In this document: one piece after another, positions 805 through 63,233 of the stretch
Layout of the letters: every line of letters begins with the position of its first letter
Position numbering within the stretch: the stretch's first letter is position 1
Source: Gammaproteobacteria bacterium
GTDB taxonomy: Bacteria; Pseudomonadota; Gammaproteobacteria; UBA4575
DNA length: 64,000 nucleotides
Reading direction: 5' to 3'
NCBI GenBank assembly: GCA_041576975.1
Contig: JBFGJY010000002.1
Coordinates: 32,187 to 96,186 of the forward strand
Notes under the pieces: generated by a model
Database searches by the model: none
What the model was told of the DNA's origin: nothing
Seen by the model: the letters and a program-made list of their open reading frames with translations, nothing else
Position numbers and translations under genes: made by a program

Positions 805-2889
805 TTGAAAAATAAAACGTTTCCATCAGTAAATACTCTCAAAGGTGTTGGCCCGCGTATTGCCGAACGTTTAAAACGTTTACAGATCTACACAATACAA
901 GATCTTCTTTTTCATCTACCTATTCGCTATCAAGATCGAACACGCATTCGCTCGATTGCTGCCTTACGTCCTGGTGATGAATGTGTAGTCATTGGTACTG
1001 TAGAGCATAGTGAAGTAGCTTATCGAAAACGGCGTATGTTTTTGGTAAGTGTAGACGATGGAACAGGCAGGATGCTATTACGGTTTTTTTATTTTAATAA
1101 TGCCCAGCGTAACAATCTTTCACGTGGAGTCAGTGTTCGTTGCTTTGGAGAAATTAGGCAAGGTATAAAAGGACCTGAGATGGTCCATCCAGAGTATGAG
1201 GTTCAGCATCCGGATGAGCCAGCAAAAGTAGAAGATCATTTAACTCCGATATACTCAACAACTGAGGGACTACATCAACTAAGTTTGCGCCGCTTAACTT
1301 CACAGGCTTTACAGTACATAGGCAGTGAAGACATACCTGATCTTGATCTTCTACCATATCCACCAGTAATCGATGGACAGCAGGTATCCATCAAAGACGC
1401 TTTAAAATTTGTCCATCGCCCACCTCCTGATGCCGATACTGAGGCATTATCTTTAGGCAATCATGCAATGCAACGCCGACTAGCTTTTGAAGAATTGCTG
1501 GCGCAACAGTTAAGTCTCTCAAAATTAAGATTACAGATGCAAAAACAGTTTGCAATCGCCATTAAATCCGATGGGATACTCTATAAAAAACTCGTCAACA
1601 ATTTAGAGTTTGATCTTACAAGTGCCCAAAAGCGTGTTATCAAAACTGTATTTGCGGACTTAAAAAATGATTACCCCATGCTACGATTAGTTCAAGGCGA
1701 TGTAGGCAGTGGTAAGACAATAATTGCAATTGCTGCATGTTTACAAGTGATAGAGGCCGGTTATCAAGCGGTTATGATGGCGCCTACTGAGATATTAGCT
1801 GAACAGCATTTACGAAATTTTTCCAACTGGCTAGAGCCCATAGGGATTCGTCTTGCTTGGCTATCAGGGAAGCTGACTGTAAGCAAGAGTAATGAAATGA
1901 AGGAACTTATCGCAACAGGAACTGCAAATGCCATAATTGGTACACATGCATTATTTCAACAAGGTGTAAATTTTAAAAATTTAGCTCTGGTAATAGTTGA
2001 TGAACAACATCGTTTTGGTGTGCATCAACGTCTGGCTTTGCGGGGAAAAGGCATTCAAGCTGATGCGCACCCGCATCAGCTGATTATGACTGCTACGCCC
2101 ATACCTCGCACCTTAGCGATGACGGCCTACGCTGATCTTGATTATTCAGTAATTGATGAGTTACCTCCTGGCCGCAAACCAATTAGTACCATCGCGATAC
2201 CACAGGAAAGGCGTCAAGAAGTTGTTGAGCGTGTGGCCAATGCATGTCGCAATGGCCAACAAGCCTATTGGGTATGCACGTTGGTTGAAGAATCGGATGT
2301 GATGCAATGTCAGGCCGCTGAAGAAGTATATCGAGAGCTCAGCCAATTATTGCGTGGCGTAAATGTCGGACTTGTACATGGTCGTATGAAAGGCAAAAAA
2401 AAGGATGCAGTGATGCAAGCTTTTGCAAAACGCACAATTGATTTATTGGTCGCTACAACGGTAATAGAAGTTGGTGTTGATGTACAAAATGCAAGTTTAA
2501 TGATCATTGAAAATGCAGAACGCTTGGGACTTGCACAATTGCATCAATTACGTGGCCGTGTGGGCCGTGGATGTGAAGAAAGTAGTTGTGTACTCTTATT
2601 TAATGCACCTCTGACGAATAATGCCAAACTGCGTATTGATACTATGCGAAATACCAACGATGGATTTAAAATCGCTCAGGTTGATCTTGAAATTCGTGGT
2701 CCAGGAGAAGTTTTAGGTACGCGTCAAACCGGTATGCTAGAGCTAAGAATTGCAAATATTATGCGCGATCAAGACCTAATCCCTAAAGTTCAAGAAACTG
2801 CAAAATCATTATTATCAGAACACCCACAAAAAGTGGATGCATTGATTCACAGGTGGTTAGGAAAGTCGATTGAATTCGGACAAGTGTAA
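805..2889 (+). CDS. recG: ATP-dependent DNA helicase RecG
   Basis: 694 aa. Walker A GDVGSGKT, DEQH box VDEQHRFG, and a wedge-domain N-terminus aligned to E. coli RecG. The probable start is TTG at 805; no ATG is present upstream of the conserved N-terminus. Confidence 0.9.
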   Translation: MKNKTFPSVNTLKGVGPRIAERLKRLQIYTIQDLLFHLPIRYQDRTRIRSIAALRPGDECVVIGTVEHSEVAYRKRRMFLVSVDDGTGRMLLRFFYFNNAQRNNLSRGVSVRCFGEIRQGIKGPEMVHPEYEVQHPDEPAKVEDHLTPIYSTTEGLHQLSLRRLTSQALQYIGSEDIPDLDLLPYPPVIDGQQVSIKDALKFVHRPPPDADTEALSLGNHAMQRRLAFEELLAQQLSLSKLRLQMQKQFAIAIKSDGILYKKLVNNLEFDLTSAQKRVIKTVFADLKNDYPMLRLVQGDVGSGKTIIAIAACLQVIEAGYQAVMMAPTEILAEQHLRNFSNWLEPIGIRLAWLSGKLTVSKSNEMKELIATGTANAIIGTHALFQQGVNFKNLALVIVDEQHRFGVHQRLALRGKGIQADAHPHQLIMTATPIPRTLAMTAYADLDYSVIDELPPGRKPISTIAIPQERRQEVVERVANACRNGQQAYWVCTLVEESDVMQCQAAEEVYRELSQLLRGVNVGLVHGRMKGKKKDAVMQAFAKRTIDLLVATTVIEVGVDVQNASLMIIENAERLGLAQLHQLRGRVGRGCEESSCVLLFNAPLTNNAKLRIDTMRNTNDGFKIAQVDLEIRGPGEVLGTRQTGMLELRIANIMRDQDLIPKVQETAKSLLSEHPQKVDALIHRWLGKSIEFGQV

Positions 2890-2986
2890 ACCCGCATACT
2901 GCACCAGACTGCCTCTATATGTTAGCGAATGGTTAATTTAATTAAAGCTAGGTAATAATCAAAAAAAACTATTTGTATCAATATAC

Positions 2987-3186
2987 GGCTGCCCGGATTT
3001 TGACTGGATCTAACTTTGCCTAGCTTGCAGTTCCTGCAAGTATTGCACTTCTGCCTTCATTAATTCTGTACGGGTTGGTTCTTTGAAGCCATAGCTACAG
3101 CTATCTATGCCATTTGTCCAGAGCGGCGCCAAATATAGCGATCTCTCACCCAAAATCTCGGACTCAGGTACAACATGCAGGTTAAA
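2987..3186 (-). repeat. Diverged paralogous element family 2, copy 1 (candidate small-peptide gene or sRNA)
   Basis: About 70% nucleotide identity to 61191-61337 (+). Shared blocks are tttaacc..gagtccga..ttgggtgagagatcgct..gcgcc..ctatggctt.aa.gaa..cagtcaaaa(t)ccgggcagcc. The reading frame is conserved across indels (ESEILGERSLYLAP..YGFKE versus ESECLGERSLCIAP..YGLKE). Confidence 0.5.
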
Positions 3187-3203
3187 AATCTTAAAAGTAA
3201 TCC

Positions 3204-3497
3204 TTAGATACCGAAGGTGCCTATCAACATCGTAGTAATATAAATTCCACACAAGCCCACTAGTGCAAGCAAAGATAATGTTTTGACCCAACTCGAATTA
3301 CCAACTGAGATGCCACCAACACTAAAAAGTAAACCAATTATCGCAATTGCAAATGACATCCAAAACAATATGTTCACGCAGGTAGTTTGGCATATGCGCC
3401 CATCAAATGTCCCAGATAATAATTGTGTACCTAAAAAAATAGCTAAAGCCCAGCTTATTACGGCGCTAAAAAATGAAATGGATGTATTTAATGCCAT
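3204..3497 (-). CDS. Small hydrophobic membrane protein (97 aa, about 3 TM)
   Basis: Uniformly hydrophobic ORF 18 bp downstream of the BASS transporter gene on the same strand. No family recognised. Confidence 0.4.
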   Translation of the reverse strand: MALNTSISFFSAVISWALAIFLGTQLLSGTFDGRICQTTCVNILFWMSFAIAIIGLLFSVGGISVGNSSWVKTLSLLALVGLCGIYITTMLIGTFGI

Positions 3498-60642: not shown

Positions 60643-61185
60643 TTAATGTTTGGCCTGCATTAAAATTGTATCAATGTGATTTGTGCGCAAGCGATTGCGT
60701 AATTGCTCTAAAGTTTGCCGGTCATTTGAAGGCCCAATACGCACTCGATGCCATTTTGAGTTATTTACCACTACCGATTGAATGTGGGCTTCTACCCCTA
60801 GCAATGCTAAGCGCGCTTTTAGGCTGTCGGCTTCATTAAATTTTTGGAACGAACCAGCCTGTAACAAATACCCTCCTGTATGGGTTGTGCCTTCGATGCT
60901 GGTAGATTTCTGCTGTGGGGCACGCGTCTCATTATGTGGAATTACAATTTCTAGCTCTGGCAGTAGAGTGTAAAAGTCAAATTTACGTTTTGTAGATTGT
61001 TCAGTTGTTTGTGCATTTTGCTGGTGTTGAGTTGTTGTGTTTGTTTGAGTTTCATCCGCATAACGTCCATTAATACGTGTCAACATCGCAATACCAAGAC
61101 CTATGAGAATACCTAAAGTCAGCCAGATCCAAGCTGGTAAGATATTTAAAGATTGCGCCGAAGGGCGCCTTTTTCTACGAGCCAT
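60643..61185 (-). CDS. SPOR-domain cell-division protein (FtsN/DedD-like)
   Basis: 180 aa. N-terminal basic segment, one TM helix, a Gln-rich linker and a C-terminal SPOR domain. Confidence 0.7.
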   Translation of the reverse strand: MARRKRRPSAQSLNILPAWIWLTLGILIGLGIAMLTRINGRYADETQTNTTTQHQQNAQTTEQSTKRKFDFYTLLPELEIVIPHNETRAPQQKSTSIEGTTHTGGYLLQAGSFQKFNEADSLKARLALLGVEAHIQSVVVNNSKWHRVRIGPSNDRQTLEQLRNRLRTNHIDTILMQAKH

Positions 61186-61190
61186 ATTAT

Positions 61191-61351
61191 TTAACCCTCA
61201 AAGTGCATCAGAGTCCGAATGTTTGGGTGAGAGATCGCTTTGCATAGCGCCTGCTCAGACTGAATGGTATAGTCGCCACTATGGCTTGAAGGAAGAGCAA
61301 GCCATGCAAAGAGAGATTCAGTCAAAACCGGGCAGCCCAGGTCAAATATAA
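61191..61351 (+). repeat. Diverged paralogous element family 2, copy 2 (candidate small-peptide gene or sRNA)
   Basis: Homologous to 2987-3186 (-). The reading frame is kept to the TAA at 61349. The 5' part of ORF 61103-61351 is antisense to the start of the SPOR gene and is probably not translated. Confidence 0.45.
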
Positions 61352-61398
61352 AATGTATTTCTTGAAGTTTTGCATATTATTTATTTAATCAATCGTTA

Positions 61399-61415
61399 AC
61401 GTCCATTTATGGACG
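61399..61415 (-). terminator. Putative argS terminator hairpin
   Basis: cgtcca-ttta-tggacg stem-loop 25 nt after the argS stop, followed by a moderately T-rich tract on the minus strand. Confidence 0.35.
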
Positions 61416-61439
61416 GTCTGGTGCACTATAAGGGTTTAC

Positions 61440-63233
61440 TTACATATGTTGGGGTGCACTGACATCAAGTAGTGTTAGGCCATTTTTCAATACAATTTGA
61501 GTTGCACGAATTAATTTAAGTCGTGCATTTCGAAGGGCCAAATCATCGACTAAAACCTGATGAGCGTTATAAAAGCTATGGAAAGTATTTGCAAGATCGC
61601 GCAAATAATTAACCACGATATGTGGAGAAAATTGGTCAGCCGCTGATATGACTTTTTCAGGGAATTGATCCAAGATGTTTATTAATCCCTTTTCTTGTGT
61701 TTGGTCTAACAGCGATGAATCTGCATCGATAAGTTCATTATCTTCTAGCTGATTACCGGCTTGTTCAAAAATGCTACAAATCCTTGCATGTGCATATTGC
61801 ACATAGTAAACAGGATTATCTTGCGATTGAGAAGTAGCTAAATCCAAATCGAAGTCTAAATGTTGCTCACATTTTCGCATTACATAAAAAAAGCGAGCAG
61901 CATCTTTGCCTACCTGTTTACGTAATTGACGCAGGGTAACAAATTCACCTGAGCGTGTAGACATTGTCAGTTTCTTGCCGCCTTCGTAAAGGTTAGCAAA
62001 CTGTACTAGTAAAATTCTTAAACGCTCAGGATCTTGCCCAAGTGCCTCAATTGCCGCTTTCACTCGAGCGATATAGCCATGATGATCGGCACCCCAAATA
62101 TCTATCAATAGGTCATATTCACGTTCATACTTGTCTAGGTGATAGGCGACATCTGATGCAAAATAAGTGGGCTGACCATTCTCCCGCACCAATACCCGAT
62201 CTTTTTCATCACCAAAATCGGTGCTTCGAAACCAAATTGCACCGTCTTTTGTATAAGTATGACCATTGCTTGTTAGTGTATCGAGTGCGGTTTGAACTTT
62301 ATTACTTTTAACCAATGATTTTTCTGAATACCATTGATTGAAATGTACATCGAATTTTTCTAAATCATCTTTAATATCATTGAGAATCGTATTCAAAGCA
62401 CGATCAGCAAAGATTTCGTAGTCTTTATCTCCTAGCAATTCTTTGCTTTTATTTATAATGGCATCGATATGGATTTCTTTATCGCCACCATTAGGTTCGT
62501 CGGGGGGTATTGCCTGCATCCATAATTGAGTGGAATGATAAAATTGGTTTTCATATTCACGGTGCAGTGATGCGGCAATATCCCAAATGTAATCACCTTG
62601 ATAAGCATTACATGGAAAGTCAAAACTATCGCCACATAATTCCAAGTATCTCAACCATACGGATACGGTGAGGATATCCATCTGTCGACCGGCATCATTT
62701 ACATAATATTCACGATATACCTCGTAACCAACAGCTTCGAGTAAATTGGCAATAGTTGCACCATATGCAGCACCGCGCCCATGGCCCACATGCAATGGCC
62801 CAGTTGGGTTTGCGGAGACAAATTCAATTTTTACTTTTTTACCTGTGAATTTTTTTGAATGACCAAACAGGTTTTGTTTATCGAGTATTTGATTTAATAT
62901 TTCAGCCTGATGATCTGAGCGTAAATAGAAATTAAGGAATCCTGGGCCTGCGATTTCGATTCTAATTTTAGGATCAACTTCATGAATCTTGTCGACAAGC
63001 TTCTGTGCTAAGTCGCGCGGGTTTATTCCATAATCATTTCCGTATTGCAAGGCGAAGTTCGTAGACCAGTCCCCATGGTCTTTATTTTTTGGACGCTGGA
63101 ATTGTGGCTCGTCGAATAGTGGCTCGAATAGTGTAATCCAAGCACCTCCATGATTTAATACTCTTTCACCTTTCAGTTCTTCTGCTGCATTTATTAGGAG
63201 TTTCCGTGCATATTCACTCATAAGTTTTGCCAA
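61440..63233 (-). CDS. argS: Arginine--tRNA ligase
   Basis: 597 aa. HIGH motif HVGHGR and a DALR anticodon-binding C-terminus. The start may instead be the M at 63221. Confidence 0.93.
   Translation of the reverse strand: MAKLMSEYARKLLINAAEELKGERVLNHGGAWITLFEPLFDEPQFQRPKNKDHGDWSTNFALQYGNDYGINPRDLAQKLVDKIHEVDPKIRIEIAGPGFLNFYLRSDHQAEILNQILDKQNLFGHSKKFTGKKVKIEFVSANPTGPLHVGHGRGAAYGATIANLLEAVGYEVYREYYVNDAGRQMDILTVSVWLRYLELCGDSFDFPCNAYQGDYIWDIAASLHREYENQFYHSTQLWMQAIPPDEPNGGDKEIHIDAIINKSKELLGDKDYEIFADRALNTILNDIKDDLEKFDVHFNQWYSEKSLVKSNKVQTALDTLTSNGHTYTKDGAIWFRSTDFGDEKDRVLVRENGQPTYFASDVAYHLDKYEREYDLLIDIWGADHHGYIARVKAAIEALGQDPERLRILLVQFANLYEGGKKLTMSTRSGEFVTLRQLRKQVGKDAARFFYVMRKCEQHLDFDLDLATSQSQDNPVYYVQYAHARICSIFEQAGNQLEDNELIDADSSLLDQTQEKGLINILDQFPEKVISAADQFSPHIVVNYLRDLANTFHSFYNAHQVLVDDLALRNARLKLIRATQIVLKNGLTLLDVSAPQHM

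Follow-up and report, generated by a model that had tools for sequence, protein, structure and literature searches.

Two segments of a 64-kb stretch of DNA from an uncultured gammaproteobacterium (the window, meaning the whole stretch that was analysed) resemble each other, and the locus raises the question of whether this similarity reflects a pair of small genes, a duplicated RNA, or DNA that moves. The original prediction described the segments, at 2987–3186 on the minus strand and 61191–61337 on the plus strand, as diverged paralogous copies of one element that are about 70% identical. Alignment and blastn bear this out. The segments share 167 of 240 positions (70%) in a MAFFT alignment and recount, and they match each other in blastn searches with E-values from 1e-6 to 1e-12. 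The identity of copies 1 and 2 is 67% in a refined alignment that includes a third copy from another contig. The whole-window repeat scan identified the two segments as the sole long repeat pair, and the 18-mer TTTGGGTGAGAGATCGCT that they have in common occurs exactly twice in the window, where 0.00 occurrences are expected. The terminal inverted repeats (TIRs), TAA flanks, and full extent of the segments indicate that they are copies of a small mobile element that lacks a transposase (MITE), inserted at TAA in tiny intergenic gaps. We assign this reading a probability of approximately 85%.

Extent and termini of the element

The homology between the two copies runs from ACC.. abutting a TTA to ..GGGT abutting another TTA, and the whole units are 293 and 242 bp long (Table 1). 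The extent of approximately 160–200 nt given by the original prediction was too narrow. An nhmmer profile made from three copies spans copy 1 from end to end, from 3182 to 2890. Beyond an AT-rich stretch, the homologous units contain a second conserved block, GGTCTGGTGCA.TAT..GGGT, which had been missed together with the TIRs and the TAA flanks.

TIRs of approximately 19–20 bp with the consensus ACCCNYATANTGCAYCAGA are located at all ends of both window copies, and also at both ends of the related copies at the loci L115 and L032 described below. Read inward, the ends of copy 1 are ACCCGCATACTGCACCAGAC, preceded by TAA, on the side of recG, and ACCTGCATGTTGTACCTGAG, preceded by TTA, on the side of the gene for a 97-residue membrane protein. 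The corresponding ends of copy 2 are ACCCTTATAGTGCACCAGAC, preceded by TAA, on the side of argS, and ACCCTCAAAGTGCATCAGAG, preceded by TTA, on the side of the SPOR-domain gene. The degenerate pattern ACC[CT][GT][CT]A[AT][AG][CGT]TG[CT]A[CT]C[AT]GA fits all four termini without a mismatch. No other site in the 64 kb is within two mismatches of this pattern, and all others require three. An independent repeat search identified the arms of copy 2 at 61184–61212 and 61417–61445, with a length of 29 nt and 76% complementarity.

The interior of the element is also palindromic. Inside the element, pairing links the subterminal block GAGTCCGA..TTTGGGTGAG to CAGTCAAAA(T)CCGGGC. The block that the original prediction singled out as the most conserved, located past the stop codon of the open frame in copy 1, is real, and it constitutes one arm of this internal inverted repeat. 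The stem of the small central palindrome of copy 1 is replaced by compensatory changes in copy 2 (ATAGT-cgcc-ACTAT), and the stem in copy 3 (ATAGC-atta-GCTAT) is that of copy 1. Taken as a whole, the element forms a long imperfect palindrome, to which an AT-rich arm of approximately 80 nt is added beside one end, and both window copies fold with their ends paired. We infer that the conserved blocks in the interior belong to the arms of a long imperfect palindrome, as is typical of MITEs, and have no coding role.

Table 1 Coordinates of the two element copies, their parts, and the flanking genes in the window
Feature	Position	Strand	Description
Copy 1 of the element (probable MITE)	2890–3182	-	293 bp; flanked by the stop codons of recG and of the convergent 97-aa membrane ORF; delimited by homology limits and by the empty sites L116 and L117
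Copy 2 of the element (probable MITE)	61194–61435	+	242 bp; separates the argS stop codon from the SPOR-domain gene start (both genes on the minus strand); delimited by homology, nhmmer, and empty sites
Segment in copy 1 alone	3041–3088	-	48 nt; copies 2 and 3 lack it
TAA flanking repeat of copy 1, recG side	2887–2889	+	Doubles as the stop codon of recG
Second TAA flanking repeat of copy 1	3183–3185	+	Putative target-site duplication, with AAATCTT after it
TTA flanking repeat of copy 2, SPOR-gene side	61191–61193	+	TAA on the minus strand
TTA flanking repeat of copy 2, argS side	61436–61438	+	TAA on the minus strand
TIR of copy 1, 97-aa-ORF side	3164–3182	-	ACCTGCATGTTGTACCTGA
TIR of copy 1, recG side	2890–2908	+	ACCCGCATACTGCACCAGA
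TIR of copy 2	61194–61212	+	ACCCTCAAAGTGCATCAGA
TIR of copy 2	61417–61435	-	ACCCTTATAGTGCACCAGA
Subterminal block of copy 1	3137–3163	-	GTCCGAGATTTTGGGTGAGAGATCGCT; pairs with the CAGTCAAAATCCGGGC block
Internal block of copy 1	2987–3006	-	CAGTCAAAATCCGGGCAGCC; inverted-repeat partner of the subterminal block; most conserved block of the original prediction
Central small palindrome of copy 1	3087–3102	-	ATAGC-tgta-GCTAT
Segment of copy 2 bounded by GAGAGAT direct repeats (61229–61235 and 61311–61317)	61229–61317	+	One repeat plus the intervening DNA equals the 82 nt missing in L032
recG	805–2889	+	Flanks copy 1; Pfam RecG_wedge/DEAD/Helicase_C/RecG_dom3_C on the identical protein
97-aa membrane ORF	3204–3497	-	Flanks copy 1; stays beside recG in relatives
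SPOR-domain (FtsN-like) gene	60643–61185	-	Start 8 nt from the end of copy 2
argS	61440–63233	-	Stop codon TAA at 61440–61442, 1 nt from the flanking repeat of copy 2

Flanking repeats and empty sites

When viewed on a common strand, both window copies are bracketed by the direct repeat TAA...TAA. The flanks on the element strand are TTA/TTA in copies 1 and 2 and CTA/(G)CTA in copy 3, and they fit a 2-bp TA duplication and a 3-bp YTA duplication alike; copy 3 is compatible with the 3-bp duplication only after the loss of one terminal base. Because the target duplication is just 2–3 bp long and always contains TA, it is weak evidence when considered alone. A stop codon abuts each of the three copies. 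At copy 1, the TAA stop codon of recG doubles as one half of the duplication, and the stop codon of the DUF3619 gene next to copy 3 consists of TA and the first A of the element.

Copy 1 is present at the recG junction in 10 of 10 same-species contigs, and copy 2 is present at the junction of argS and the SPOR gene in 10 of 10. Proteins identical to the flanking ones are encoded in NCBI assemblies made of short contigs (GCA_0415... and GCA_0416...). Among relatives with flanking proteins that are 87–95% identical in amino acid sequence, both filled and empty alleles occur. The recG site of the window reads ...GTG TAA (293 bp) TAA AAATCTTAAAAG, with AAATCTT following the second TAA. The empty site in L116, the RecG protein of which is 95% identical, reads ...CAGGTA TAA GTCTTAAAG and has a 35-nt spacer to the gene for the 97-residue protein. 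The empty site in L117 (RecG 87% identical) reads ...GTC TAG AAATCTTC CTA and has an 8-nt spacer; here, AAATCTT is located directly after the recG stop codon, as it is after the second TAA of copy 1. At the other site, the arrangement ATGTAA G TAA (242 bp) TAA ATAAT ATGG of the window corresponds to ATGTAG G TAA AATAACT ATGG, with a single TAA, in L112 (SPOR protein 89% identical) and to ATGTAG G CAA AATAACT ATGG in L119 (93% identical). The spacers between argS and the SPOR gene in L113, L114, and L033–L044, which include more distant relatives, are 3–40 nt long and empty. In close relatives, the point of insertion thus carries one TAA (or TAG/CAA) and is located in a spacer of 3–40 nt, and the excision of the element with one TAA from either window site gives the arrangement of the relatives. 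The limits of the paralogous similarity, the tips of the TIRs, and the breakpoints of the empty sites agree to the nucleotide.

One relative, L032, with a SPOR protein that is 94% identical, keeps copy 2 but lacks 82 nt of its interior, a length not divisible by three. The remainder of this copy is 92.5% identical to that of the window, compared with 88.9% for third codon positions in the SPOR gene next to it, which indicates that the element evolves roughly neutrally.

Third copy and distribution of the family

The third copy, at L115:623–866 in another contig, is located in an ECF-sigma-type operon, where it separates a DUF3619 gene from the gene that comes next. It is flanked by CTA...CTA and is 67–69% identical to copies 1 and 2. 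The three insertion sites (recG/97-aa ORF, argS/SPOR gene, and DUF3619/next gene) are unrelated to one another. A peptide-profile search of 1.84 billion representative proteins resulted in two matches. The first, P0121, is an 86-residue called ORF that spans the third copy completely, both inverted repeats included; the second, P0122, is a repetitive protein, in which the match covers 15 profile positions only. A word-indexed search with P0121 returned P0121 alone.

The nhmmer profile of the element, applied to fetched loci that total approximately 550 kb and belong mostly to more distant relatives, found no copy other than those in the window, in L032, and in L115. A search for the shared 18-mer in 185,579 GTDB species representatives gave 11 matches in unrelated phyla, which is a number expected by chance, and none in relatives. 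The absence of the 18-mer from relatives among the representatives, together with the absence of further copies in the fetched loci, suggests that the element family is limited to a narrow lineage, as it appears from these searches. Blastn with both copies gave no match among the PLSDB plasmids, and a pattern combining the TIR and subterminal block gave 0 matches in IMG/VR. No autonomous insertion sequence with matching ends was found in the window or in the plasmid and viral collections, which counts against the reading as a MITE, as does the small number of known independent insertion sites (three).

The copies are 31–33% diverged from each other, and both window insertions are younger than the separation from relatives that differ at approximately 20–25% of third codon positions. 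Such divergence despite the young age of the insertions argues for sources that had diverged beforehand and against one recent burst. The copies probably derive from source elements that were already diverged.

Comparison with known mobile elements

Prokaryotic MITEs are derivatives of insertion sequences that carry inverted and direct repeats, contain no recognisable ORF, and are mobilised in trans (PMC3852290), and the element matches this description. It is 242–293 bp long and without recognisable coding, its TIRs are at its exact ends, its flanking duplication is single in the empty sites, and it is present at several unrelated loci. Bacterial MITEs in general, of which MITEAba12 of Acinetobacter (PMC6382973) and the approximately 240-bp MITE of Cardinium (PMC9769881) are examples, are like the present element in their size of 240–290 bp, in their lack of a transposase, and in having TIRs. 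The Cardinium MITE was linked to a parent of the IS982 family through common inverted repeats (PMC9769881). Bacterial MITEs likewise have a short flanking direct repeat, are intergenic, and differ in presence or absence among close relatives. The present element differs in that it had no sequence similarity to the plasmid and viral collections that were searched. MITEAba12 is shorter than the present element and has a longer duplication. The ends of IS982-family elements presumably begin with AC(C), as do those of the present element, which we take as a lead only.

Tourist-type/PIF-Harbinger and IS5-family elements produce 3-bp TWA/TNA duplications, and IS630/Tc1-mariner elements (Stowaway-type) produce a TA duplication. 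The flanks of the three present copies suit both the IS5/PIF-Harbinger-type 3-bp model and the IS630/Tc1-mariner-type 2-bp model. Read as a MITE, the element represents a new family within a well-known class of mobile DNA in an uncultured gammaproteobacterium.

Based on the termini and the insertion sites, a mechanism of mobilisation can be proposed. The element would be mobilised in trans by the DDE-type transposase of a full-length insertion sequence located elsewhere in the genome. The transposase would recognise the ACCC...CAGA ends and integrate the element at TA/TAA, giving rise to a 2- or 3-bp target duplication. Where a compact genome leaves very little space between genes, insertions at or near TAA stop codons may be tolerated, which would explain why all three copies are abutted by a stop codon.

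Alternative explanations

The element may be more than selfish DNA, either because of an open reading frame like that of the Rickettsia palindromic elements (RPEs), or because its hairpin has been co-opted at the RNA level and affects the neighbouring genes. We consider this unlikely. RPEs are inserted in frame inside protein-coding genes and translated with them. The present element is like RPEs in being a palindromic mobile repeat with one reading frame open; unlike them, its three copies are intergenic, abut stop codons, and have no sign of translation. In an RPE-like scenario, the frame would be kept open so that the element is tolerated or translated at gene ends, or it would encode a short peptide. 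The Correia elements of Neisseria (CREE/NEMIS) and the ERIC/IRU elements of enterobacteria are imperfect palindromic intergenic repeats with TIRs and a TA-containing duplication. The present element is similar to both in being palindromic, in its TIRs and TA-containing duplication, in its position beside gene ends, where those elements often occur too, and in its capacity to fold as a long RNA hairpin if co-transcribed. Correia elements (approximately 100–155 bp) and ERIC elements (approximately 127 bp) are, however, shorter and unrelated in sequence, and they are present in tens to hundreds of copies. Functional effects, which include promoters, IHF sites, and RNase processing, are a documented feature of those elements only. 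Copy 2 separates argS and the SPOR gene by 245 nt, compared with 3–40 nt in relatives. The outward-facing end of copy 2 contains a Shine-Dalgarno-like motif, GAGGG, located 9 nt upstream of the ATG of the SPOR gene, and this motif could serve as a ribosome-binding site.

It is very unlikely that the segments are paralogous sRNA genes or duplicated cis-regulatory RNAs, such as structures of 3'UTRs or 5'UTRs, in which the long hairpin would be a functional RNA. MITE-like repeats such as ERIC and Correia elements can act at the RNA level when they are co-transcribed with genes, and the consensus fold of the three copies contains 61 pairs, eight of which have compensatory changes, several of them within the TIRs. 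This proportion makes some constraint on the hairpin, as DNA or as RNA, possible. However, covariation of the inverted repeats is equally expected from shared transposase binding or from intrastrand repair in palindromes. Because transposon ends have to fit the same transposase, and palindromes can be homogenised by repair, the covariation of the arms does not discriminate between the readings. Copy 2 folds far better than its shuffles (z = -4.3), whereas the folding of copy 1 is no better than that of shuffles (z = -1.1). The original prediction of an sRNA or UTR element also found no backing in Rfam. A search of the whole window at gathering thresholds, and of both loci at E-values up to 10, gave matches at chance level only (E-values of at least 0.7), namely ssnA with 13.8 bits, Histone3, and STnc340. 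No convincing sigma-70-like promoter or intrinsic terminator common to the copies was found, and one weak terminator-like hairpin is present in copy 2 alone. The orientation relative to the flanking genes varies between the copies. Furthermore, very close relatives lack the element at these loci, and part of it is deleted in L032, both of which argue against the RNA reading.

A non-mobile intergenic repeat, of the REP/BIME or terminator type, could have been spread by recombination or gene conversion in place of transposition. The small number of known sites (three), the failure to find a transposase partner, and the very short flanking repeat are compatible with such an origin. Nevertheless, it is highly improbable, since the insertions are nucleotide-exact relative to the empty sites, each is bracketed by a duplicated TAA, and the flanks have no common homology to drive recombination. 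REPs are 20–40-nt palindromes, and not units of 240–290 bp with 19–20-bp TIRs.

The reading as a family of genes for small proteins of about 50–60 residues, with the peptide ...SES.ILGERSL...YGLKEEQA..., translated and under selection, is largely refuted, and we regard it as very unlikely. The signal on which it was founded exists. Each of the three full-length copies has the same frame open over 51 codons or more, with stop codons in the other five frames. In a neutral star-tree simulation, the frame was open in all three copies in approximately 1–3% of runs, and the probability of the open frame is approximately 0.015–0.03 under this simple neutral simulation, the lower value (approximately 0.015) being obtained with a 0.56 chance of some open ancestral frame. 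The ORF over copy 1 extends across 3010–3291 on the minus strand (93 residues), and that over copy 2 across 61103–61351 on the plus strand (82 residues). The original prediction held that the frame stays open across indels that net to a multiple of three. The frames are indeed open, but the indels within the supposed coding part are +1, -4, and -48, and the +1 and -4 indels shift the frame locally, over approximately 17 nt. The starts of the 93- and 82-residue ORFs are outside the element, inside or antisense to the neighbouring genes. As had been noted at the outset, there is no convincing start: no in-frame start codon is common to the three copies, and no ribosome-binding site was identified. 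Gene callers placed no gene at either site in 20 same-species contigs.

The substitutions give mixed indications on selection on the peptide, which the original prediction had suggested. Mismatches by codon position (10/38, 9/40, and 14/40) are nearly flat, without a clear excess at third positions, and are similarly flat in the other pairs of copies. The point estimates of dN/dS between the paralogues are below 1, at 0.45–0.72, with approximately 20 synonymous sites. The peptides are 42–52% identical in amino acid sequence, which we estimate is about what 70% nucleotide identity yields without selection. The 82-nt deletion in L032 breaks the frame and is followed by an in-frame stop codon; a frame-breaking indel in an orthologue is what the original prediction had named as grounds for refutation. 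Other close relatives, with flanking genes that are 87–95% identical at the amino acid level, lack the element. The peptide in the proposed frame has no match in Pfam, to a transposase or to any other family, and its sole real relative among the 1.84 billion representative proteins is P0121, the ORF that runs through the third copy including the inverted-repeat end. The open frame, most likely an incidental feature or a relic, constitutes a minor unexplained signal, which may be a relic of the coding region of the parent, an RPE-like tolerance feature, or a product of chance.

IS200/IS605-derived elements have no TIRs and no target duplication but subterminal hairpins, and REP palindromes are short, so IS200/IS605 PATEs and REP/RAYT systems are ruled out by the TIRs, flanking direct repeats, and 240–290-bp length of the present element. 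Inspection by eye revealed no resemblance to an integron attC site, or to a sigma-54 promoter in the GGTCTGGTGCA block, and Acinetobacter sRNA families, guessed from the base composition, were dropped; relatives of the flanking proteins, where named, usually have the label "MAG: Gammaproteobacteria bacterium".

Implications

The identification of the segments as copies of a probable MITE does not alter the present understanding of MITEs. The open frame and the covariation of the arms are the sole features that are perhaps worth revisiting once more copies are known. For annotation, the element accounts for what looked like paired paralogous conserved intergenic elements, and it is as by-products of a mobile repeat that the 82–93-residue ORFs across the copies and P0121, the 86-residue protein in the database, are best understood. 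The insertions point to recent transposon activity in an uncultured, small-genome lineage of marine gammaproteobacteria. Since they are polymorphic among relatives with 87–95% identical flanking proteins, they could serve as strain markers. The positions of the copies at or beside TAA stop codons, in tight gene junctions, illustrate how an element that targets TA(A) may survive in a compact genome.

Internal variation and distribution of the MITE copies

Copy 1 of the MITE contains an internal segment of 48 nt, which is missing in copies 2 and 3. The start of the segment (CTTCAAAGAAC) is similar to the sequence directly behind the segment (CTTGCAGGAAC); this similarity points to a tandem duplication within copy 1 that has since diverged. 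Copy 2 contains a terminator-like hairpin followed by a T-run (CTGGGCTGCCCGG TTTTGACTGA), pointing in the argS-to-SPOR direction; the promoter and terminator scans did not report such a hairpin with a T-run for copy 1. The orthologue of copy 2 in the relative L032 has 82 nt deleted between two 7-nt GAGAGAT direct repeats, and one of its flanking TAA repeats is now CAA. The empty site of the relative L119 also has CAA at the position matching the mutated flank.

An 18-mer common to copies 1 and 2 had no matches in the Gammaproteobacteria species representatives of GTDB r232, and its 11 chance matches among the species representatives were all in other phyla. Either the species has no representative in GTDB r232, or the representative lacks both loci or carries diverged copies.

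Coordinates of features in and around the MITE copies
Feature	Location	Strand
48-nt segment of copy 1	window 3041-3088	minus
Outward-facing end of copy 2 with the sequence upstream of the SPOR gene start	window 61186-61200	minus
SPOR gene start	window 61185	minus
Terminator-like hairpin of copy 2	window 61328-61340	minus
Copy 2 orthologue	L032:2831-2992	
Sequence after recG stop	L120:2273-2561	
Intergenic stretch	L117:13817-14050	
P0121	L115:610-870	
Gene called next to P0121	L115:860-1069	

Genes neighbouring the MITE sites

Directly after the recG stop codon TAA, the relative L120 (RecG 95% identical in amino acids) has neither the 97-aa gene nor the MITE. The stop is followed by at least 289 nt unrelated to both. 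Over 240 nt, this sequence shares 76% identity with an intergenic stretch of the relative L117 that lies without a gene call between the SnoaL and antiporter genes. The shared sequence represents either a second repeat family of the lineage or a deletion or rearrangement of the block from the 97-aa gene to SnoaL.

The public gene call P0121 (86 aa; cluster of six member sequences) is an open reading frame spanning all of copy 3, and the ATG start of the next called gene lies inside the terminal repeat of this copy. Both calls are probably annotation artefacts due to the MITE insertion.

The outward-facing end of copy 2 places a GAGGG motif 9 nt upstream of the SPOR gene ATG (...CACTTTGAGGGTTAAATAATATG). 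Copy 2 may now supply the ribosome-binding site of the SPOR gene. The spacer between the argS stop and the SPOR gene is just 3-40 nt in element-free relatives; argS-derived transcription must cross the 242-bp palindrome of copy 2.
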